A stretch of 64,000 bases of DNA from NCBI GenBank assembly GCA_048320885.1, contig JBLWFJ010000001.1, positions 1,605,642 through 1,669,641 of the forward strand. Reading direction: 5' to 3'. Positions within the stretch are counted from its first letter, which is position 1; every line of letters starts with the position of its first letter. The stretch is from Nannocystaceae bacterium ST9. GTDB lineage: Bacteria; Myxococcota_A; Polyangia; Nannocystales; Nannocystaceae. Below the pieces are notes generated by a model. The model was not told the origin of the DNA. It saw only the letters and a program-made list of their open reading frames with translations, and did no database searches. Both the position numbers and the translations under genes were made by a program. This document shows, piece by piece, positions 17,758 to 64,000 of this stretch.

Positions 17758-17780
17758 TCCGCTGGAATTCATCACGCATG

Positions 17781-17807
17781 GCGCAATCTCCCGCGGGAGA
17801 TTCGACG
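17781..17807. repeat. Solo copy of the palindromic element GCGCAATCTCCCGCGGGAGATTCGACG (core 18-bp perfect palindrome)
   Basis: Sits in the convergent intergenic gap between the CULT gene and the HAD hydrolase gene. 31 nt are identical to the copy at 60671..60704. Confidence 0.7.
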
Positions 17808-19055: not shown

Positions 19056-22000
19056 TCACGGCGCGGGCGCGAACATCCGCGCGAGCTTGGCCTCGACCGC
19101 GACTCGAACCGGGTGGCTGGCGTCGATCCGTTGAAGCAGGGCGCTCAGCTCGGGCAACACCTGGCTGCCGGCCATGACTTGTCCGGTGCCGAACAGACTG
19201 GCGACGTAGCCGGGGCCGGCCTGGACCTGCTCGAAGGGCAGGTCGGCGTCGCGGGCAGCCTCCCAGGCGTCGCGCGCCCAGACCAGCGCCTCGCTCGGCT
19301 GCTTGCGCGCGAACACGTCGAGCTCGGCGAGCAGGATCAGACTCGGGATCGTCCGCGGCGTTCGGCGCGAGCCGAAGAGCTGGGTCTCGGCGGCGATCGA
19401 CGCGTGCAGCAGGCCGTGCGCCTCGTCGACCCGGCCGCGATGCACGAGCAGGGTCGCGAGCGTGTGCATGGTCATGGTCACCTCGGCGTGCACGTCGGTC
19501 GCATGGATCTCGCGCTTGATCGCCAGGCTCTCGCGCAGCAGCGACTCGGCCTCGTCGAAGCGAGCTTGGCCGAGCAGGGCGCTGGCCAGGCCGTGCAGGG
19601 TCGAGGCGACGTCGGCGTGGCGACGGGTCGCGAAGATTCGAACTTGCAGCTCGAGGTTGGCGCGGTAGCAGGCCTCGGCCTCGTCGTACTTGCCCTGCGC
19701 GAGCAGGGCGTTGGCCAAGCCGTGCGCGACCGCGGCGAGCTCGGGATGATCGACCTGGCCGTAGGCTCGCTGCTTGATCGCCAGCGCCTCGCGGGCGAGC
19801 TGCTCGGCCTCGGGCGCCCGCCCGCGATGAAAGGCGAGGTTGGCCAGGCCGGCGAGGCCCGCCGCGATGTCGGCGTGCTCGCGCGAGCCGTGCACGCGCT
19901 CGAGGATTGCGATCGACTCGCGATAGGCGGCTTCGGCCCGGTCGTACTCGCCCGATCCAGACAGCGCGTTGGCGAGCCCGTGCAGGGACGAGGCGACATG
20001 CGGGTGCTCGCGGGTGCCGAACACCCGCTGCTTGACGACGATGCTCTGCTCGAACGCCGCGATCGCGTCGGCGTACTTGCCTTGGCAGTCGAGCACGTCG
20101 CCGAGCCCTCGCAGCACGGTCGCGAGCGAGGGGTGATCTTCGTCGCCGACCAGCGAGCGCAGGATCGCGGCGGCCTCGCGATAGTCGGCCTCGGCCTCGC
20201 CGAGCTCGCCGAGCTGAGCCAGCGTGTTGGCCAGGCCGTGCAGCGCGAGCGCGACCTCGGGGTGCGCGTGCCGACCGAAGCCCTGCTCGATCTTGGCGAT
20301 CGCCTCACGATAGTTGGTCTCGGCCTCGCGCAGCTTGCCTTGCCGCAGCTGGGCCGACGCGAGCCCGGCCAGCGCGATGCCGAAGTCGGGGCGAGCCTGC
20401 AGACCGAGGCGCTCTTCGATCGCCAGCGCCTGGCGATACTCGGCCTCGGCCTCGCCGTACTTGCCTTGCCCGAGCAGGATGTTGGCCAGACCGGCGTGCG
20501 AGATCGCCAGGTCGGCGGGGCTCTGCCCGGCCTCGCCGGCCAGCGCGATCGATCCGCGAGCGTGGACCTCGGCCTCGCGGTAGCTGCCCATCGACTGGGC
20601 CGCGGCGCCGCAGTGGTGCAGCCAGGTGTCGCGCTGCGCGAGCGGCCAGTCGACCTCGCGCAAGCCATCGAGGAACTCCTTGCGCAAGCGGTAGAGCCCG
20701 GCTTGGTGCATGGTCGACGAGATCGCGATCATCACCCGCTCGGCGCCCTCCCACTGCTCGGCGGCGAGGTAGTGGCCGAGCGCCTCCTGCAATCCGGCGA
20801 GGTCGCGCTCGAGCATGCCGCACTGCTCGCGATGTCGACCGAGCAGCGCGCGACCGGACTTGGTCCAGGCCGGGCGTCCGGCGAACTGCTTGCCGACCGA
20901 CTCGCGGACCAGCGAGTGCAGGGCCCACGCGTCCTCGCCCGCGAAGCGACCGAGCAGACCGAGCGCGGCCAGGCGGTCGTCGCCGCTGCCGAGCCGCTCG
21001 ATGATCGCCCGCGGGACCGGCCGCTGGATCGCCGAGCACTCGCCGAGCAGGGCGAGCTCGTCGGGCGCGAGACAGGCGATCAGGCTGCCGAGCGCGAGCC
21101 GCTGCTCGACCTTGGCCCCGAGCCCGGCCAGCGCGGGATCGAGGTAGGCCGCGCGCATGATCTCGACGTCGCCGTCTTCGTCGAGCGGCGGCGCGCCCGG
21201 GAGCTTGCGCAGGCTGATCAGGCCGTTGATCCAGTCGACCGTGCCGGGGTGACCGTCGATCCGCTCGGTCAACTGCTCGCGCAGCGGCTCGGGCAGGCGT
21301 TGAAGCGGGTGCTTCCACGCGGTCATGCGATAGATCTCGGCCTTGCTGCACGGCGGGATCGACTCCCAGCAGCCGCACTCGCCGGCCGGCAGGTGGCGCG
21401 AGGTCATCAGCAGGGTCGTGTCGCCCTCGATCTCGCGCGCGAGGCAGGCGAAGAACCCGACCAGCGCCTCGTCGCGCCACTCGACGCCGCGCTCGGAAGA
21501 CGCCGCGCTCGCCTGCATCGACTCGAGGTTGTCGAGGTAGAGCACCCCGCCGCGAGCCAGGCCGAGCAGGAGTCGAGCGAGCGCCTGCGGGCGATCCTCG
21601 GCCCGGTCGAGCGCCTCGAGCCGCGCGTCCCAGTCCGCGGGCTTGCGCGGATGCTTGCCGATCACGCGCCGAACCAGGCCGAGCAGCCAGACGAAGGGCG
21701 TGGTTCGAGTGGCCTGCTCGACGTAGTCGCCGATCGGCAGGGCGATCACGTCGCCGGCGTCCTCGCTGCAGATCAGCGCGAAGCGGGTCATGGTCGTGGT
21801 CTTGCCGAGCCCGCCGAGCCCGTGGAGCCCGAGCGCTCGCTCGCCTCGCTTGCGGAGCTTGCGAAGCCGCGCGAGCAGCCGGCGACGACCGATGAAGCCG
21901 TGCTCGAGCACCGGCAGGCCCTCGGCGCCGGCCAGCTCGATCCGCTCGGGTCGCAGCACGTCCTCGAGCTGCTTGGTCTGGCGCAGCTTGCCGGCGACCA

Positions 22001-23960
22001 GGTCGCGATCGGGCCCGCGATGATAGAGCGCGAGCATCGACCAGGCGAAGGGGTAGCGAACGAAGCCGAGCGGGGTGTCGAGCACCTCCTTGCTGCTCAG
22101 CCGCGCGCGACGAACGGCCTCGACGGTCCGCTCGGTCGCGACCAGCTCGCGAAACAACGCGCGATCGATCCGGGCGATCAAGACGTCGGGGATCGGCCCG
22201 AAGTAGCCGAGCACCTGCGGGATCCCGCGGCGATGAAGTTGAGCGGCGATCGAGACCTCGCGGGCCGAGGCCGCATTCGAAGCCACGTCGCCCTCGGAGG
22301 CCACGCCCACGCTCGCCCCGTGCCCACACGAGAGCCAGAACGCGGCCGGAAGGCGCGAGGCGGCGGCGGCCAGGCGATCGCAGACGCTGGCGATCTCGAT
22401 CGGCGCGGGCCCGCCGTCCTCGTCCTCGAACAAGAGCTCGCCCGGCGCACCGCGGCCCGAGAAATGCAGGATCGTCGGCCGCTCGATCGCCCGCACGGCC
22501 TCGACCAGATCGTCGAGCGTGCCGAGCTCGGTGAAGCGCACGTAGCCGCGCAGCGGATCGAGGGCGCGGGCGATCCGGTACGAGGCGGCCTCGAGATCCT
22601 GGCTCGAGCCCTCGTCGGTCTCGGGCGCGGCCACGTGCGCGACGATCCGCGGGACGGTCGAGTCCTCGGGCAGCGGCTGCGCGCCGGGGACCACGACCTC
22701 GCGGATCAGGTTGAGGCTGCCGTTGCCGACCGGGAACTCGCCACGCACGCAGACCAGCTCCCAGGGCAGCAGCAAGACCGCGTCGACCTCGGCCGGATCA
22801 CCGTCGACGCGCAGCGCGAGGCTGGCCGGCTCGCTCATCGCCGCCGACCCGATCAGCTCGACCAGCCGCGCGGCGGCCTTGCTCGGCAACACGCCGAACA
22901 GCCGCTCGCCGATCGCCCGCGCGCGGGTTCGAATCCCGGCCGCGAGCGCCTCGCTCTCCGAATCGAGCTCGCCGTGGCGGGTGCACGAGAGCCCGCGCGC
23001 GGCCAGGGCCTGCAGCTCGCCGAGTTCGACCAGCGAGAGCTTCGGCGGATCGATCTCGACCCGCTCGCCGAGCGCCTCGACGGTCCAGCGCGGCCCGGGT
23101 CGGATCACCAGCGCGAGCTCGCGGGCGCCGGCGATCACCACCTCGTCGGCCAGCGCCTCGAACCAGCGCGGCAGCGTGACGAAGTCGGGCAGCTCGACTC
23201 GCTGGATGTGCTTGAGCACCTCGGCGTAGCTGCGCCCGTCGGTCCACTTCAGCGCCTGCAAGGTCGCGCCCTCGCCCGGGCCGATCACCGCGCGCCACAG
23301 GTGGAGCAGGCGACGCTGCTCGGCCGGCAACTCCGAGGTCCAGCGCAGCAGCCGAGGATCTTGCAGCGAGCAGCCGACGAAGAGCACGCGATTTTGCCGG
23401 AGCAGCACCTCGAGCTCGTGGATCGCCAGCGGATGGCGGCGCTCGTAGAGCGAGTAGCTCTCGCCGGTCAGCACCGCCGAGGTCCAGTCGTCCCAGGTCC
23501 CGTGGATCGCCAGGTAGAGCGGCAGGCCCTCGCCGGCCAGGTGCAGGCCGCGGTCGAGCTGCGAGAAGCGATGCGGCGCGCCGATCATCTCGCAGGCGCG
23601 CCGCAGCAGCAGGTCGTAGCAAGTGTCGATGATCGCCTTGAAGCGGCCGGCGGCGATCAGCTTGGCGAGGTGGAAGTGCAGCGGGCCCGGCTGGGGCGTG
23701 CGGCCCTGCTTGCGAAACTCCTGCTCGAGGAAGCGATGCAGCTCGCCCTCGCCGAGGTTCTGCACGAAGTCGTCGATCCACGCGTAGGGATCGTCGGACG
23801 CGGGCGGCTGCCAGTTGTCGGCCTCCTTGCGGCGCAGCGCGTCGACCAGCGCCCACAGGGTCGGCAGCGGTGGGTCGGCTTGGCAGCTGGCGCCCGCGCC
23901 GAGCCAGAGGATCGGCCGGCTGTCGTTGCTGAACAGGCCGCGGATCTTCTCGACGCTCAC
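19056..23960 (-). CDS. SIR2 - CHAT (caspase-like) - NB-ARC/STAND NTPase - TPR multidomain protein (NLR/Avs-like), about 1634 aa
   Basis: SIR2-like N-terminus: ILWLGAGAS, TCYD, VLFVGCSLQDPRLLRW. CHAT: LPWELV, ILHFSGRG, FWLSCGHGAS, LGYFGPIPD. P-loop GLHGLGGLGKTTT plus Walker B VLYLDNLE. About 10 TPR_12-type repeats (HPxVAxxLxxLAxxLxxQGKYxEAE). Start set at GTG 23960 (VSVEKIRGLFS) with GAGG 4 nt upstream; the upstream 64 codons of the listed ORF are R-rich junk. Confidence 0.85.
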   Translation of the reverse strand: MSVEKIRGLFSNDSRPILWLGAGASCQADPPLPTLWALVDALRRKEADNWQPPASDDPYAWIDDFVQNLGEGELHRFLEQEFRKQGRTPQPGPLHFHLAKLIAAGRFKAIIDTCYDLLLRRACEMIGAPHRFSQLDRGLHLAGEGLPLYLAIHGTWDDWTSAVLTGESYSLYERRHPLAIHELEVLLRQNRVLFVGCSLQDPRLLRWTSELPAEQRRLLHLWRAVIGPGEGATLQALKWTDGRSYAEVLKHIQRVELPDFVTLPRWFEALADEVVIAGARELALVIRPGPRWTVEALGERVEIDPPKLSLVELGELQALAARGLSCTRHGELDSESEALAAGIRTRARAIGERLFGVLPSKAAARLVELIGSAAMSEPASLALRVDGDPAEVDAVLLLPWELVCVRGEFPVGNGSLNLIREVVVPGAQPLPEDSTVPRIVAHVAAPETDEGSSQDLEAASYRIARALDPLRGYVRFTELGTLDDLVEAVRAIERPTILHFSGRGAPGELLFEDEDGGPAPIEIASVCDRLAAAASRLPAAFWLSCGHGASVGVASEGDVASNAASAREVSIAAQLHRRGIPQVLGYFGPIPDVLIARIDRALFRELVATERTVEAVRRARLSSKEVLDTPLGFVRYPFAWSMLALYHRGPDRDLVAGKLRQTKQLEDVLRPERIELAGAEGLPVLEHGFIGRRRLLARLRKLRKRGERALGLHGLGGLGKTTTMTRFALICSEDAGDVIALPIGDYVEQATRTTPFVWLLGLVRRVIGKHPRKPADWDARLEALDRAEDRPQALARLLLGLARGGVLYLDNLESMQASAASSERGVEWRDEALVGFFACLAREIEGDTTLLMTSRHLPAGECGCWESIPPCSKAEIYRMTAWKHPLQRLPEPLREQLTERIDGHPGTVDWINGLISLRKLPGAPPLDEDGDVEIMRAAYLDPALAGLGAKVEQRLALGSLIACLAPDELALLGECSAIQRPVPRAIIERLGSGDDRLAALGLLGRFAGEDAWALHSLVRESVGKQFAGRPAWTKSGRALLGRHREQCGMLERDLAGLQEALGHYLAAEQWEGAERVMIAISSTMHQAGLYRLRKEFLDGLREVDWPLAQRDTWLHHCGAAAQSMGSYREAEVHARGSIALAGEAGQSPADLAISHAGLANILLGQGKYGEAEAEYRQALAIEERLGLQARPDFGIALAGLASAQLRQGKLREAETNYREAIAKIEQGFGRHAHPEVALALHGLANTLAQLGELGEAEADYREAAAILRSLVGDEDHPSLATVLRGLGDVLDCQGKYADAIAAFEQSIVVKQRVFGTREHPHVASSLHGLANALSGSGEYDRAEAAYRESIAILERVHGSREHADIAAGLAGLANLAFHRGRAPEAEQLAREALAIKQRAYGQVDHPELAAVAHGLANALLAQGKYDEAEACYRANLELQVRIFATRRHADVASTLHGLASALLGQARFDEAESLLRESLAIKREIHATDVHAEVTMTMHTLATLLVHRGRVDEAHGLLHASIAAETQLFGSRRTPRTIPSLILLAELDVFARKQPSEALVWARDAWEAARDADLPFEQVQAGPGYVASLFGTGQVMAGSQVLPELSALLQRIDASHPVRVAVEAKLARMFAPAP

Positions 23961-24001
23961 GCCTCGATCGTAGCGCCCGGTGGGTTGGTTACGATGCGCG
24001 A

Positions 24002-24952
24002 GTGAGCGTCGATCGTCGGACCTGGCTCGCGGGTGTGTCGACCACGATCGGCTGCTTGGCCTGCGAACGCGCGGCTCCGCGGACGGCGAGCGAACGCGAG
24101 CCGACTCCGAGTGAGGATCGCGAGCCTTTGCCACCCGGCCACGAACCCCCACCGTCGGGTCTGCCGATCGGCGACGAGCCTGGCCAGGATCTCGCGAGCT
24201 TCCTCACCGAGCCCCGCCGCCCGATCACGGCCGAGCGGCGCACGCTCGAGCTCTTGCCGATCGGCGAGTACCCGCGCGGCTTCGTCGTCGAGTACGAGCG
24301 CGTGCACCTGGTCCGCAGCCCCGAGCTCGAGCTGCTGCGTCGCTTCGCCAGCGCGTGGTTCGGCCTGCCGGTGCGGGTCGCCGCGGCGCTCTCCGACGAG
24401 CTGCTCGAGACCCAGGCCCCCCAGCGCGAGTTCGAAGGTCGTCGGCAGTTCGACGCCGAGGCGCTGCTCGGCACGCTCGCCCCGCTGCGATCACCCGACG
24501 CCCACTCGCTGCTCGGGTTGACGCTCGAGGATCTCTGGTCGCCCTCGCTCGAAGGTCAGTGGGTGTTCGGGCTGGCGGCGGTCGAGCGCGGGCTGGCGAT
24601 CCACAGCATGCTCCGCTACGACCCCGGCCTGCGCAGCGCCGACGAGCGCCCACCGGACTTCGAGCGAATCATCCGCGATCGTGGCTTGCGGGTGCTGGTC
24701 CACGAGCTCGGTCACCTGCTGGGCATCCGTCATTGCGTGCACTTTTGTTGCGTGATGAATCCTACTGCGGGGCTCGCCGACCTCGATCGCCTGCCCTTGC
24801 GACTATGCCCAATCTGTCTCGACAAGCTGAACGCGGCGACCGGCGTCGATCGACTCGCTCGCGCGCTCGCGCTGCGAGACCTCTACGCCGAACTCGGGAT
24901 GATCGTGGAGCGCGACTGGATGAATGCACGAATCGCCGAAGCGACTCCATGA
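24002..24952 (+). CDS. Archaemetzincin-like zinc metalloprotease (peptidase M54-like), Tat-lipoprotein
   Basis: HELGHLLGIRHCVHFCCVMN...LCPICLD matches the archaemetzincin HExxHxxGxxHC...C...CxxC signature. N-terminus DRRTWLAGVSTTIGC is a Tat motif with a lipobox. Divergent from the STAND gene. Confidence 0.75.
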   Translation: MSVDRRTWLAGVSTTIGCLACERAAPRTASEREPTPSEDREPLPPGHEPPPSGLPIGDEPGQDLASFLTEPRRPITAERRTLELLPIGEYPRGFVVEYERVHLVRSPELELLRRFASAWFGLPVRVAAALSDELLETQAPQREFEGRRQFDAEALLGTLAPLRSPDAHSLLGLTLEDLWSPSLEGQWVFGLAAVERGLAIHSMLRYDPGLRSADERPPDFERIIRDRGLRVLVHELGHLLGIRHCVHFCCVMNPTAGLADLDRLPLRLCPICLDKLNAATGVDRLARALALRDLYAELGMIVERDWMNARIAEATP

Positions 24953-42426: not shown

Positions 42427-43506
42427 CCTCGAGCTTCGCTCGAGGAACCCCCTCTTCTCGGCTCTGCCTACGTGGGGCATTGCGTGGTTCCCCTGCTCGG
42501 GCCGTCTCGCCCTCGCGGGGAATGGACAGCGGGTTCGCTTCGCTCCCCTTGCTTCCGCTTCGGCGACGGCTCGTCGCTTTTTCTTTGCGGGAGGTCGGAC
42601 AGAGAAACTTGGCCCCATCGCCTGGCCGCTTGTCATTGCTGGGTTTGTCGTGCTTTGCACGATTTTTCCCACGCCTTCTCAACCGATGTTGGAACTGTCG
42701 AGTGGGCCGGACATTGGAATGCCGACCGGGGATCCAACCGCGACACCTACGCCCCAAGGCGGATGCAATCCTGAGCAGCATACACGCGTCGCATCATTCA
42801 GTTTCGGGCTCTCGCTGCTCGGCGAGCGCCTGGAGGCCGCGATGGCCCTCTGCTCATTCTTCGAACGCGTTACAGTGATCAGTGTGGTCGCGTGAGCGCG
42901 ATGGCTCCACCCGCTCAGCTTGGACTCGACTTGACATTCGCACGCATCAATGATATGATTCATGCGATGGTCGATTGTCTGGAATCCATCGAACACCTCG
43001 CCCGGCAGATCGCTGAACTCGCTCGCTGCATCGATACGGTCAAGCACGCTTGGCTCCGGCGAATCCGTGAATTCGACGCCCGCAATGGTTGGGCAGACAC
43101 GGGCTGCGTCTCGATGGTCGCGTGGCTCTCGTGGTGGACGGGCACCAGCAACAAGACGGCCAGCGAGCATGTCCGTATCGCCCGGGCGCTCGGTGAGCTG
43201 GCTTTGATCGATCAGGCATTCGCAGCCGGTGAGCTGACCTATTCCAAGGTCCGCGCGCTCACCCGCGGCGCCACGCCGGCCACCGAACAAACCCTGCTCG
43301 ACGTTGCCACGACCGCGACCGCCAGCCAGCTCGACAAGATCGTCGCTGGATTGCGGCGAGTCCGAGTGTACGCAAATCCCGAGCAAGGCGGTGGCGAAGC
43401 GCCGCGCCGATTCGCCCGCTTCACCGAGACGCCGGATGGCATGGTTCGAATCGTCGCTCAGGTCGGGCCCGAGGAGGCGCTCGTCCTGCAGGCGGCAATG
43501 GACGTG

Positions 43507-43533
43507 GCGCAATCTCCCGCGGGGGATTCGACG
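43507..43533. repeat. Palindromic element copy (GCGCAATCTCCCGCGGGGGATTCGACG) inside the HNH ORF
   Basis: Encodes AQSPAGDS. One mismatch from a perfect palindrome. Confidence 0.7.
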
Positions 43534-43555
43534 GCGCCCCGCGCGGCCAACGACC

Positions 43556-43580
43556 CGCAATCTCCCGCGGGAGATTTCGG
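43556..43580. repeat. Palindromic element copy (CGCAATCTCCCGCGGGAGATTTCGG) inside the HNH ORF
   Basis: Encodes PQSPAGDF. Core AATCTCCCGCGGGAGATT is a perfect 18-bp palindrome. Confidence 0.7.
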
Positions 43581-45103
43581 GTCCGACCAAGCCGACGCGC
43601 TGGTCGCCGTCGCGCGCGGCTATCTCGATCGCAAGCCGACCACGCGCGGCACCGGTTGCGAGCTGATCATGATGACCACGCCCGAACAGCTCGCTCACGG
43701 CCCCGAGGGGATCGGTGGATTCCTGCGCGATGGCACCCCGTTGCCGCTGCACGTGGCCCGAATGCTGGCCTGCGACGCCTCGCGGGTCGACGTGAGCGTC
43801 GGCGAGTCGGGTGAGATCCTCGACGTCGGCCGCTCGCGTCGAACCATCCCCACGGGGATCGGTCGCGCGCTGACGCTGCGCGACGGTGGCTGTCGCGTGC
43901 CGGGCTGCGGGCGCTCACGGCATCTGCAGGCCCATCATGTCGAAGCATGGGCAGAAGGTGGGGAGACCTCGATCTCGAACCTCGTGCTGCTCTGCCCCGG
44001 CCACCACGGCTTGGTCCACGAGGGCAAGCTGCACGTCGAGGTTCGGGCGGGCAAGCTCGAATTCATCAATGCCCACGGTCTGACCATCGAGCCTACGCCG
44101 AACCACAGCATCGACCCCGAGACCGTCGCCGCTTGGCTCGACGCTGCCGAGCCCCCGGGCGAGCCGCCGATGGCGTGGGACGGGAGTCGGCTCGACCTTC
44201 ACGAGGTGATCGGTTGGATGATGCTGTCCGAAGGATTTCGAGCGGACGTGGGCGCGCGGGGATGATTGCGCAGGGCTCATCTCGGGCCTTCTCGAGGGCA
44301 TGCTCGCCTGGTCAGCTCGGGCGTGGATCCGCCTCGCCTACGCCCTCTGACCAACGAAGCGCGATCGCCCGCTCGAGTCGAAGTCGGCCGCGAAGCGCTG
44401 GGGTCAGGAGCGGACCTGTTCCAACACGGTCGGCCCCCAACGTCGCGGCGCAAACAGGTCTCAGCAAAAACAACCAGGGAGGCCCCCGGCATGGTGGCCT
44501 CCCCGTCGCTTCGAGCGGTTCCGGTTCTCTTGTTTCGAGGCTCCCGCAGCGCCTCGGGGTCCGTTGTCGCGTCGTGGATCGCGGGCCGACGCGGTGGTCG
44601 ATGGCTTCGACCGAGTTGCTGCCGGGGCAGAGCCCCGACGACTCGACTCTCGTCGAGTGGCGAGCTCGCGCTCGCGTCAGGAGTGTGCGTCCGTCGAGGT
44701 CGGCTCGAGACTGGCTCGGGAGCGCCTCGACTTCAGGGTGGCGCCGCGCTGGGCGGGCGCCGGTCCCGGGCTAGGAGGGTCCTCCTTTCGGGGGTTGAGC
44801 CCGATGGTTGCAAGTAGGGGCTTGGAGCGGACGTCGTGATTCGATCATGCTCACCTCCTGTTGCCGGGTGCCTGAAGCGACACGCCGATCGTAGCAGCGT
44901 CCGTTCGCTTCGCTCACTACTAATTTTTAGGGAGGCCCTTCCGCGGGCCTCCCCCGGGCCGGCAGAGCCGTCCCGGGTCCTCCTCCTCGCAGGCCCTTCG
45001 GGCTTGCTCGCTTCGCCTTCGCTCGCTCGGTCCTTCAGCCACGGTTCAATTTCGCGACGAGTCGGTGGCGACTCTCGCGTGGAGGGAATTCCTTTGGCCG
45101 GCT

Positions 45104-60655: not shown

Positions 60656-60677
60656 GCTCGCGTCGGTTCAGAACATG

Positions 60678-60704
60678 GCGCAATCTCCCGCGGGAGATTC
60701 GACG
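60678..60704. repeat. Palindromic element copy GCGCAATCTCCCGCGGGAGATTCGACG
   Basis: Identical to the solo copy at 17781..17807. Confidence 0.7.
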
Positions 60705-60725
60705 CATCCTCGCCGCCAACGATCC

Positions 60726-60750
60726 ACAATCTCCCGCGGGGGACTATGGC
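60726..60750. repeat. Palindromic element copy CACAATCTCCCGCGGGGGACTATGG (degenerate)
   Basis: 48 bp downstream of the preceding copy, the same spacing as inside the intact HNH ORF. Confidence 0.6.
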
Positions 60751-60922
60751 TCCGACCAAGCCGACGCGCTGGTCGCGGTCGCGCGAGGCCATCTCGAACG
60801 CAAGCCGACCACGCGCGGGACCGGATTCGAGCTGCTCATGATGACCACGCCCGAGCAGCTCGCCCACTGCCCCGAGGGGATCGGTGGATTCCCGCGCGAA
60901 TCGATCGTCTCGCATGATCATG

Positions 60923-61641
60923 TCACCCCTGGCCCGCCCATCCACGCAACACGACGGTTTCGGACACGATCCCAGATCCATCGAATCCTTCCGAACAATC
61001 GGGTTCGGTCAAGACCGCCCCCATGACGTTCTTCGGGAGCCCACGAATGCCCGCCAAACCACATCGCGTGAACTTCGTATTCTCGAAGAACATGGCGTCG
61101 AAGTCCGCTCCTCGCAGATCACTGTCGGCGAAGTCCGCGCGCGCCGCGTTCGCCGAGCGAAACGAGCACTCGTGCAATCGGCACTTCGTGAAATCCGATC
61201 GTTTCAACTTCGCATTGTCGAATCGACAGTCGACGAAGATCGACTCGAAGAACATCGATTTCGTGAGATCAGCACGTGAGAAGTCGACTCGCTCGAAGGT
61301 CGAGCCACTCGCGCCCAAGCTCTGGAGGCCCGAACCTGCAAAGTTCGAGTCAATCACATCACACTGGTCCATGCGAGCATCCTGAAGGAAGCAGCGCTCG
61401 AATGCACAGCCATCGAATCGACAGCGACGAAATTTTCCATCATTGAATTCGACCCCGCGAAACACGATCGCTACAAACTCACAGCCGATGAACTCAGCGC
61501 CAATCAGATTTGTGTCGGCGAGGGTCGACTGACTAATCCTTCGATCTCGCAGCAAGAACTGAACACCATCGGGTTTCCCCATGACCCAACGCTGATGGGA
61601 TTCGAGCAGTGAGGTTCCGAAGAACTCTTGATCGACTGACA
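60923..61641 (-). CDS. Pentapeptide-repeat protein
   Basis: Repeats of A(D/N)LxxxxF-type pentapeptides (RADLTKSMFFESIFVDCRFDNAKLKRSDFTKCRLHECSF...). Start is uncertain: ATG near 61641 (MSVDQEFF), coupled to the upstream stop, or an upstream GTG at 61822. Low GC3. Confidence 0.6.
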
Positions 61642-61643
61642 TC

Positions 61644-62252
61644 TCAGCTGTGACCTGACTCGAATCGGACCGCCCCGGTCCGGCGCCAGCCGCGGCAGGG
61701 TGAAGACGCACCAACTTTCCATATGACCAGAACGTCGTCGTCTCGATGGTAGCGAAAGAATTGATCAGACGCTTCATGGTTCGCGCTCTTGTCGCCGAAC
61801 CGTGCGATGAACGTGGGATCACGCAAATCGGCCTGCCTCACCGCCTCGGTCTTCCAACCGGCCTTGAACGCCCAGCCCGCGGCGCTCCGCTCGACATGCA
61901 CGACGAAATCCCGGGCTGGAAATCCAAGAAATTCGCCGATGTCGTTCAATTTATAATTGTATGACGGATGAACATCCGCGCACGTCACATAAAATTCAGC
62001 TCCACATTTCTCGGTCTCCATATCCGGGGTGAGAGGTGCCAACCATCGCGGTTGTTGATGAACGATACCCCAAACAGCGACATCATGACCAATTCGTTCG
62101 ACATACCCAGCGAATTGCTCATGGAACGAGAGCCATACATCGAAGCACCGGCCCGCGGCCTGCAAAATCGTCTCGACCTTCCTGGTCGAGACTGCGGAGA
62201 ATCGCTCGAGCGTGGCGAGGTATTCGATGGCGGTCGGTGTCATGGGTATCAT
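61644..62252 (-). CDS. Immunity-like protein, paralog of 62776..63411
   Basis: Shares blocks with its paralog: FHEQFAGYV / FHERYAGYV, TCADVHPSYNYKL / ACADMHPSHDFRL, GEFLGFP / GKFLGGP. Low GC3. My coordinate read near its stop is off by about 1 nt. Confidence 0.55.
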   Translation of the reverse strand: MIPMTPTAIEYLATLERFSAVSTRKVETILQAAGRCFDVWLSFHEQFAGYVERIGHDVAVWGIVHQQPRWLAPLTPDMETEKCGAEFYVTCADVHPSYNYKLNDIGEFLGFPARDFVVHVERSAAGWAFKAGWKTEAVRQADLRDPTFIARFGDKSANHEASDQFFRYHRDDDVLVIWKVGASSPCRGWRRTGAVRFESGHS

Positions 62253-62259
62253 GGATCAG

Positions 62260-62769
62260 TCATGCGGTGGGAGCATTGTTTGCTGGATCCGGCATCTGCC
62301 AACCGTGAGGTCGTTCAACGAACTCCATGAGATCGATGTCGATGTCGATGACCCTCCAACCCTTGCGTCGGCGCCGTTGCTCGAGAAGGTGCCAGTCTCG
62401 GTGTGTTGGCATCATCCGAAACTCTTCGGTGCGCTCGCCCCTCGAACTCCACGCGATCCGAAAGACGCAAAAATCGCACTCCCAGTACGCATCGGACTTC
62501 GGCCTTCCGTCTTCATACCATTCCTTTGCCGGACCGTTGCGGAGGCCCTTGAAAAAGAAGACCTCCGACTTCAACCGACCGTCATGATACCATGATCGAA
62601 AGGGTCCATGTGGAGCCCCCCACGTGTATCCCGCAAGGCCGATCAAATGGCCAGTCTTCTCGTCGCGCTCGTAGGCCATCCCCGAAAAGGGTTGGCCATG
62701 ATGGAGCATATCACTCGAACCATCCTCGGCGGTATCGAGTTCATCAAAATCGATCTCGAGCATGGACAT
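62260..62769 (-). CDS. YwqK-family / MORN-repeat immunity (antitoxin) protein
   Basis: MORN-variant repeats (GPFRSWYHDGRLKSEVFFFKGLRNGPAKEWYEDGRPKSDAYWE). Clearly low GC3. Confidence 0.7.
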   Translation of the reverse strand: MSMLEIDFDELDTAEDGSSDMLHHGQPFSGMAYERDEKTGHLIGLAGYTWGAPHGPFRSWYHDGRLKSEVFFFKGLRNGPAKEWYEDGRPKSDAYWECDFCVFRIAWSSRGERTEEFRMMPTHRDWHLLEQRRRRKGWRVIDIDIDLMEFVERPHGWQMPDPANNAPTA

Positions 62770-62775
62770 CCTGGG

Positions 62776-63411
62776 TCACTCGCTCGCGTGGAGCCGAACC
62801 CACCCATCGCGCAGCTCCTGGTGCTCTCGGTCGTCGGCGATCAGGTAGGTCTCGTCCTTCAGATACGACGTGTACTCGTCCGACGCCGCGTCGATCCTCC
62901 GCATCGTCGACCTTCCGAGGATCTCGGCGCGCAACTCGGGATCGCGCCCCTTCACCATCACGACGTTCTCGACCGCATGGCCCTCGCAGAAACCCCAGAC
63001 CGCCGCGAGTTGCTCGATGAACACGTCGAAGGAGGTCGTGGGCCCGCCGAGGAATTTTCCGTCGTGGCGCAGCCGGAAGTCGTGCGAGGGGTGCATGTCG
63101 GCGCAGGCGATCGCCCACTTGCCCTCGCGCGACCAATCGAAGACCCGCGGCTGAAGTGGGTCGAGCCAGGTCGGATGCTCGTGAACGAGGCCGAGCACGC
63201 AGAGTTCGTCCAGCTCGAGCACGTATCCGGCGTAGCGCTCGTGGAAGTCTAGCCAAGCCGGAAACACGGGGTATCCGCGAGCGTGGAGCAGCCGCTCCAC
63301 TTCGGAGGTGGGGAGGAAGGAATCGCGACGCTGAAGCGCGAGCCAGTCGATTGCTGCCTTCGAGAGCATGTTCGCCTCCGATTCTACGACGAGCCCCCGC
63401 CCGGTGGCCAT
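62776..63411 (-). CDS. Immunity-like protein, paralog of 61644..62252
   Basis: See paralog. Overlaps the 3' end of the toxin ORF by about 28 bp. Confidence 0.55.
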   Translation of the reverse strand: MATGRGLVVESEANMLSKAAIDWLALQRRDSFLPTSEVERLLHARGYPVFPAWLDFHERYAGYVLELDELCVLGLVHEHPTWLDPLQPRVFDWSREGKWAIACADMHPSHDFRLRHDGKFLGGPTTSFDVFIEQLAAVWGFCEGHAVENVVMVKGRDPELRAEILGRSTMRRIDAASDEYTSYLKDETYLIADDREHQELRDGWVRLHASE

Positions 63412-64000
63412 GGCCGATCCCCAGGTTGCCAGTTCTTCGCGGCATCAGTTTGTTTCTGCCCGCGCATCTTGTGATCGAAGGTACCGGGCTCCGGATCGAA
63501 GGGAGCGTGCGCTCCATCCGTGCCGACCTCGCAGTTGCCGCAGCGCGGCGCGGGTTCTCCCGCGCGCATACGATCGGAGTCGCCTTCACGCCACATCGGT
63601 ACCACGGTCATTTCGGAGATATCTGCCTCCGTGGCTCCTGGACCTCGCTTGTGCAGCGCGTCGTTGAGCGCGTGGACTTCGCCGTGCGTCGATGGCCGCG
63701 ACGAGTGTCGCGGATTGTCTTTGTTCCAAGCCAGCCGAGGTTGGAGCGCGGGATGGGGCTTTCGGGGTGGTTGTTTTCCTGGGTCGTTGATCGCCCGGGA
63801 GACTTCTCCAGTACGACGATCGACGACGACGACGACGACCGGTCCACCTTGCTCTGCATTGACCTTTTGTGTTCGTCCGCCACCAATGTCGATTGGAGTC
63901 CCATTCTTGATCGCGTTATCGAGCGCCAATCGATATTTCTCAGCTTCTGCGAGCGCGAGACGCTGCGCGTCCTCTTGCGACATCAACTTGGGTTTGTCGG
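63384..64000 (-). CDS. C-terminal toxin domain of a polymorphic toxin, YwqJ-like nucleotide deaminase (partial; N-terminus beyond window)
   Basis: HGEVHALNDALHKRG (HxE zinc-binding helix) and PRCGNCE (PCxxC) are the deaminase signatures. The frame is open to the window edge. The YwqK-like immunity gene is downstream. Confidence 0.55.
   Translation of the reverse strand, partial: DKPKLMSQEDAQRLALAEAEKYRLALDNAIKNGTPIDIGGGRTQKVNAEQGGPVVVVVVDRRTGEVSRAINDPGKQPPRKPHPALQPRLAWNKDNPRHSSRPSTHGEVHALNDALHKRGPGATEADISEMTVVPMWREGDSDRMRAGEPAPRCGNCEVGTDGAHAPFDPEPGTFDHKMRGQKQTDAAKNWQPGDRPWPPGGGSS

Follow-up and report, generated by a model that had tools for sequence, protein, structure and literature searches.

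A probable polymorphic toxin locus with a YwqJ-clade deaminase tip, a predicted cognate immunity gene and a putative poly-immunity array in Nannocystaceae bacterium ST9

The right-hand end of a 64,000-nucleotide (nt) stretch of the genome of Nannocystaceae bacterium ST9, a member of the myxobacterial order Nannocystales (contig JBLWFJ010000001.1, positions 1,605,642 to 1,669,641; hereafter the window, with coordinates counted from its first letter) holds the 3' end of what is likely a contact-dependent locus for a polymorphic toxin, in which a YwqJ-clade deaminase tip on a probable Rhs carrier is followed by a predicted immunity gene that we call ImmA and by a putative poly-immunity array. Five open reading frames (ORFs) run on the minus strand from 64000 to 60923, tightly packed with gaps of 1-14 nt, and all five lie where a preliminary description of this DNA had placed its co-directional genes:

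63384..64000, minus strand: 3' end of the toxin gene with a predicted complete C-terminal tip (Pfam PF14431, motifs, frame open at the edge)
62776..63369, minus strand: ImmA, predicted cognate immunity protein, 197 amino acids (aa) (linkage to the tip, family conservation)
62260..62769, minus strand: MORN-variant repeat protein, YwqK-like, 167-169 aa (NCBI name, sub-threshold MORN_2)
61644..62252, minus strand: ImmA', a paralogue of ImmA, 199-202 aa (sequence identity)
60923..61642, minus strand, probable extent: pentapeptide-repeat protein, last gene of the operon (Pfam Pentapeptide)

The toxin ORF is open over all 204 codons between the window edge and its TAG stop (63384-63386), and its tip matches the Pfam family YwqJ-deaminase (PF14431) with 43.1 bits against a cut-off of 25.9 (E 6e-11) over tip residues 52-157, at about 63845-63528. 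The two motifs that had been noticed in this edge-open frame, HGEVHALNDAL and PRCGNCE, are located at 63686-63654 and 63548-63528, and within them the zinc-binding and catalytic residues are intact (H105-G-E107 at 63686-63678; P151-R-C153-G-N-C156, with the CxxC at 63542-63531), which together with the family match bears out the preliminary call of a YwqJ-type deaminase. The tip also keeps an insert histidine (His82 at 63755, as H82-P83) that is listed as a feature of the YwqJ clade by Iyer et al. 2011 (PMC3239186). When the window tip is aligned with 15 related tips, 14 columns are invariant across the 16 sequences, including H105, E107, C153, C156 and H82-P83, and the window tip keeps 14 of 14. 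These features argue for a YwqJ-clade zinc-dependent deaminase, and the whole toxic domain probably lies in the window, because the ORF aligns from the head of the tip, just past the Rhs junction of its relatives. A housekeeping nucleotide deaminase was considered and rejected, as the match to dCMP_cyt_deam_1 reached only E 0.055 and the context is foreign.

A word-index search of 5.8 billion cluster representatives with the tip returned only three relatives, and the nearest (P0001, in locus L042) is 74% identical over 132 codons, with a ratio of nonsynonymous to synonymous substitution rates (dN/dS) of about 0.13 that is only approximate because dS is near saturation. The window tip ends in a clade-specific C-terminal tail (63479 to the stop), and this tail of about 30 aa (FDHKMRGQ..W.PGDRPW) is common to the window tip, L042 and L002 only. 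The window tip further carries an insertion of 11-13 aa, TPIDIGGGRTQKV, that is absent from the other aligned tips covering the region. PDB sequence searches with the tip and with a tip profile found no solved structure of the tip clade, the Rhs junction motif being all that matched, and neither NCBIfam nor PADLOC gave a match for the tip, ImmA, ImmA' or the MORN protein.

The gene that follows the tip is most likely its cognate immunity gene, a function that we assign mainly from context. A metagenome scan with the ImmA alignment yielded 37 loci, and custom hidden Markov models (HMMs) placed a YwqJ-like tip directly 5' of the ImmA homologue in 13 of them. The same tip-ImmA pair occurs in L042, with 74% identity to the window protein for the tip and 46% for ImmA, and in L002 a degenerate tip precedes ImmA. 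The linkage thus recurs in independent loci, and it is because the ImmA family directly follows this tip clade in the 13 loci and in L042 that we favor ImmA, and not the MORN gene, as the cognate partner. A DcrB-domain gene stands between tip and ImmA in two more loci and also in the P0007 contig. This second architecture (L023:3971-6576, L031:3913-6570 and the P0007 contig) consists of a 515-596-aa non-Rhs protein with a YwqJ deaminase in mid-protein, then the DcrB-domain gene, then ImmA. Other ImmA homologues are solitary or sit within immunity arrays, and occurrence in tip-linked, solitary and array settings alike is how immunity genes behave, which is why we read ImmA as one. The rates of change differ as well: against L042, dN/dS is about 0.53 for ImmA and about 0.13 for the tip, so that with 46% identity as against 74% the immunity gene evolves much faster than the toxin it would neutralize.

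The likely start of ImmA is the ATG at 63369, 14 nt past the toxin stop and with a GGAGG 6 nt upstream, since this start preserves the conserved N-terminus of the family. The NCBI call for this gene (MFV8750292.1, 148 aa, 99% identical) is probably too short, as it lacks the N-terminal 49 residues that the family conserves. The preliminary description had a SUKH/Imm-like gene at 62776..63411; the ORF stands, its start is revised to 63369, and SUKH sequence models fail to recover it, with no match of SMI1_KNR4 or SUKH-3/4/5/6 in 84 family members at E<=10 and a probability of 0.4% when the ImmA profile was compared by hhalign with one SUKH-1 protein. An exhaustive profile search of 1.84 billion sequences gave 220 family representatives at 50% identity, nearly all of them stand-alone proteins of about 190-200 aa. 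Among the 84 members, the family's own region matches no Pfam family; the sole source of Pfam matches is HEAT repeats, a known immunity module, which three longer members carry as fusions. A PDB sequence search with the ImmA profile found no ImmA match. A structure model from seven sequences was poor (predicted local distance difference test score, pLDDT, 59) and was replaced by one from 84 sequences, and a Foldseek search of the ImmA model against PDB and BFVD returned nothing significant. The family gives only a faint signal that may reflect a SUKH-like fold. In the ImmA alignment (A3), R15, C89, H93, E119, S163 and D164 are invariant or nearly so, and the motifs WLxFHExYAGY and CAxxHPS are conserved, a degree of polar conservation that is unusually high for an immunity family.

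The five genes form a low-GC island of foreign base composition. GC content, about 0.70 in the genome, is down to 0.55-0.65 between about 60750 and the right window edge, and GC content at third codon positions (GC3) is 0.64 in the tip, 0.85 in ImmA, 0.64 in the MORN gene, 0.63 in ImmA' and 0.66 in the pentapeptide gene. A foreign origin is supported by the contrast between GC3 values of 0.63-0.66 in the island and of 0.91-0.94 in three of four sampled neighbors, the fourth, the adjacent methyltransferase gene, having 0.75. Low GC3 had been ascribed to all of the genes, and this applies to four of the five, ImmA being intermediate.

The carrier of the tip is most likely an Rhs/YD-repeat protein. 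Eight long ORFs terminate shortly upstream of an ImmA homologue; six of these encode DUF6531 and RHS repeats (in part with an RHS core) leading into a YwqJ-deaminase domain, and the Rhs-YwqJ protein of L020 has PAAR in addition. An Rhs junction precedes the tip in relatives from L007, L013, L016, L019, L020 and L032. This junction, NLYAY..NPL..VD..GL, has its counterpart at the C-termini of Rhs cores with solved structures (8qjc) and in the DddA construct 6u08. The window ORF aligns with these relatives from the tip head 'PPLMS', which in them lies 40-70 residues past the junction, and the end of the Rhs shell would accordingly be expected 120-210 nt (40-70 residues) beyond the window edge. 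No further Rhs fragments were found elsewhere in the window, and a scan of genome contigs returned only a weak match, in Promicromonospora (L001).

Several points weigh against this interpretation of the locus. The N-terminal carrier of the toxin is outside the window. No tip-containing protein is present among the 5.8 billion cluster representatives, and four neighbors (the Ser/Thr kinase, ImmA', the MORN protein and ImmA) are. The deaminase signature Gx[CH]xE is not matched exactly, as the window has S-T-H-G-E where most related tips have Gly, a deviation that we consider minor, and the deaminase assignment is made from sequence. The MORN_2 match of the MORN protein, at 24.2 bits, is below the Pfam cut-off of 29.6 and covers one repeat, no related locus examined holds a homologue of the pentapeptide protein, and the GC3 of ImmA is far above that of the tip.

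It is possible, if on balance doubtful, that the locus is an orphan or decayed cassette: a C-terminal fragment, disrupted or lacking a promoter, that recombination has left behind with no working carrier, in which case the locus would be a purely defensive immunity island and a reservoir for tip swapping. The missing tip protein would fit such a history, given that the four ST9 neighbor proteins are in the collection, and the annotation deposited for ST9 may treat the gene as a pseudogene or an orphan. Decay of this kind is visible in relatives. In L002 (L002:164-1170) a toxin 'scar' has lost the deaminase core and retains an Rhs junction in degenerate form (NPLVFVDVLG) together with the head (LMSEADAE..) and the tail (CEVITDGAH..FDHKMRGQ..PGDRPW) of the tip; it stands next to an intact ImmA homologue. 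A tip fragment separates ImmA copies in L032, and the L029 tip is split across frames. A gene fragment also abuts the ST9 island, as described below. The window tip itself, however, retains every catalytic and invariant residue in a frame that is open for 204 codons to the edge, its dN/dS of about 0.13 speaks against decay, and clustering at 90% identity could equally well account for the missing protein, which may belong to a cluster that has an Rhs paralogue with a different tip as its representative. We retain an Rhs-borne toxin as the better account.

A second alternative concerns which gene protects the producer. The preliminary description had assigned the MORN protein to the cognate immunity family of YwqJ toxins; on such a reading, which has its parallel in Bacillus subtilis ywqJK, ImmA would be an accessory factor, such as a chaperone or adaptor. 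The YwqK naming holds, as the protein is identical to NCBI MFV8750291.1, a 'toxin-antitoxin system YwqK family antitoxin', and YwqK of B. subtilis does neutralize YwqJ. The sole MORN homologue in the fetched loci, in L004 (E 9e-13), follows directly after a YwqJ-like deaminase and precedes an endonuclease V-like gene (L004:1922-2233), which is the gene order of B. subtilis ywqJ-ywqK-ywqL. Yet that deaminase (P0003) is a stand-alone protein, just 31-36% identical to the window tip, and the cognate role is not favored, since it is the ImmA family that follows the window's tip clade. In the window, where the MORN gene comes second after the tip, in L042 and in the 13 metagenome loci, ImmA is first, and a MORN homologue is absent from these other loci; ImmA is, besides, met on its own and as part of immunity arrays. 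We consider a cognate MORN protein very unlikely. With ImmA as the cognate partner, the MORN gene probably serves as orphan immunity against another YwqJ subclade, because no MORN homologue was found beside Rhs-borne, window-like tips in the fetched loci.

Genes surrounding ImmA bear on what the tip would attack. YwqJ of B. subtilis is a single-stranded DNA (ssDNA) cytidine deaminase that is delivered by a type VIIb secretion system (T7SSb) and has YwqK as its immunity protein, and the lesion it makes is repaired by YwqL, a co-operonic endonuclease V (PMC13648612). In 12 of 39 loci (L003, L005, L011, L012, L013, L016, L017, L018, L019, L023, L027 and L030), or in 11 of the 31 that have at least 600 nt of downstream sequence, ImmA has a short endonuclease V-like gene (PF04493; ~170-180 aa) no more than about 300 nt away, in either orientation. 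The window has no endonuclease V gene. That this neighbor recurs across related loci speaks for DNA as the target, and we infer that DNA is the substrate of the window tip as well. It suggests, too, that an arrangement of toxin, immunity and repair is general, and the link between YwqJ, YwqK and endonuclease V known from B. subtilis would then reach Rhs-borne tips that have a different immunity family.

The genes beyond ImmA are best described as a putative poly-immunity array after the cognate gene, which is what had been proposed when orphan immunity cassettes were recognized at the 3' end of a polymorphic toxin locus. Comparable arrays exist in L032 (Rhs-YwqJ, ImmA, ImmA, tip fragment, ImmA) and in L018 (SUKH-1, ImmA, ImmA). 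ImmA' was correctly described as a paralogue of the first immunity-like gene: the two are 37% identical over 177 aa (E 2e-35). ImmA' is identical to NCBI MFV8750290.1, which starts at 62243, and is probably an orphan immunity gene. The last gene encodes, as had been stated, a pentapeptide-repeat protein, with 75.1 bits against a cut-off of 20.2 for PF00805 (Pentapeptide) and 80.7 against 38 for PF13599 (Pentapeptide_4), and it would be 239 aa long if the ATG one base past the ImmA' stop is used. Pentapeptide-repeat proteins have been reported as antitoxins of Rhs and T7SS toxins (bioRxiv 10.64898/2026.07.13.738213), and this one may be a further immunity protein or a DNA mimic, a role we infer only, because related loci hold no homologue.

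A mechanism can be proposed in which the edge-crossing ORF is the exchangeable C-terminal tip of a large carrier, most likely of the Rhs/YD-repeat type, whose cage would end in a PxxxxDPxGL-type junction 40-70 residues upstream of the window edge. Delivered into a neighboring cell, the tip would deaminate cytosine in DNA and so bring about uracil lesions, mutations and breaks that become lethal during repair. ImmA would protect the producer by binding and blocking the tip, and the three co-transcribed genes for the MORN protein, ImmA' and the pentapeptide protein may guard against toxins that non-kin strains deliver.

Some phage-defence systems employ deaminases, and the window encodes a conflict-type SIR2-CHAT-STAND-TPR protein (19056-24152), yet we find it hard to credit that the tip is the effector of an intracellular toxin-antitoxin or anti-phage module and not a secreted weapon, as none of the five proteins matches PADLOC, the frame continues upstream of the tip and the nearest tip relatives are the C-termini of Rhs proteins; a defence-system reading was rejected. 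The conflict-system-like gene itself is a minus-strand ORF of 1698 aa with SIR2_2, CHAT, AAA_16 (STAND-type) and many TPR domains.

The locus shares features with several known systems. With the LXG-type, T7SSb-delivered YwqJ-YwqK(-YwqL) system of B. subtilis (PF14431; PMC13648612; Iyer et al. 2011, PMC3239186) it has the deaminase clade in common, and as in ywqJKL the tip is directly followed by a predicted immunity gene and the operon includes a YwqK-like MORN gene. Unlike that system, the window tip is probably carried by an Rhs protein and not by LXG/T7SS, its first downstream gene is ImmA and not MORN, endonuclease V is missing from the window, and the tip has the 11-13-aa insertion and the C-terminal tail of about 30 aa. 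Relatives of the tip share DUF6531, RHS repeats and the junction with Rhs/PAAR toxins of T6SS (type VI secretion system) type such as DddA (PDB 6u08), although DddA belongs to the SCP1.201 clade and the window tip to the YwqJ clade, and the Rhs part of the window gene is beyond the edge. Extra immunity genes after the cognate one are likewise found in Rhs poly-immunity arrays. The pentapeptide protein resembles Qnr/MfpA and pentapeptide antitoxins in its strong pentapeptide repeats and lies in an immunity array, and unlike Qnr it falls far below the equivalog cut-off of that family (59.5 against 240 bits).

On its left, the low-GC island is bordered by a gene fragment:

60673..60899, plus strand: internal fragment of a DUF222-HNH gene (88% identity to 43502-43730)

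The parent copy is a DUF222+HNH gene of 457 aa at 42892-44265, of which residues 218-292 are matched, and the HNH domain is absent from the fragment. The preliminary description had the locus end at a fragment of an HNH repeat element, and the identity to the interior of the DUF222+HNH gene agrees with this. An 18-nt perfect palindrome, AATCTCCCGCGGGAGATT, occurs five times in the window at up to two mismatches, with none expected (17785-17802, 43511-43528, 43559-43576, 60682-60699 and 60728-60745). The DUF222-HNH gene and its fragment contain two copies each, and the remaining copy stands alone, inside an exact repeat of 31 nt (17777-17807). The island flanks hold no tRNA genes, no long repeats and no convincing terminator. 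The left-hand neighbors are a Methyltransf_32 methyltransferase, a universal stress protein, an M48 peptidase and a Ser/Thr kinase, the last identical to NCBI MFV8750285.1.

A polymorphic toxin tip followed by a poly-immunity 3' module is a well-described kind of locus, and what is new here is modest and leaves the picture of how such loci work unchanged. The new points are the probable assignment of ImmA as the cognate immunity gene, an ImmA family that is uncurated, with no Pfam or NCBIfam model, a tip subclade with a private insertion and tail, and the short endonuclease V-like gene that recurs beside ImmA among related loci. As a myxobacterial (Nannocystaceae) case, the locus enlarges the set of YwqJ-clade deaminase toxins, for which activity has been demonstrated only very recently, and it identifies a likely immunity family for its Rhs-borne branch, which is useful for annotation and for mining deaminases and inhibitors for base editing. 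We offer, as a tentative conjecture that is rather unlikely to hold in all its parts, that ImmA is a new family dedicated to Rhs-borne YwqJ deaminases, that tip, ImmA and endonuclease V make up a widespread three-part module of which the window is a variant, and that the window's tip has a differing preference. If this is true, a module of attack, neutralization and lesion repair would extend the B. subtilis ywqJKL arrangement across phyla with another immunity family. The repair slot would in the window have been replaced by a poly-immunity array, with the pentapeptide protein acting as a DNA-mimic decoy, and the tip subclade defined by the insertion and tail would differ from YwqJ in its substrate preference, which would be of interest for base editing.

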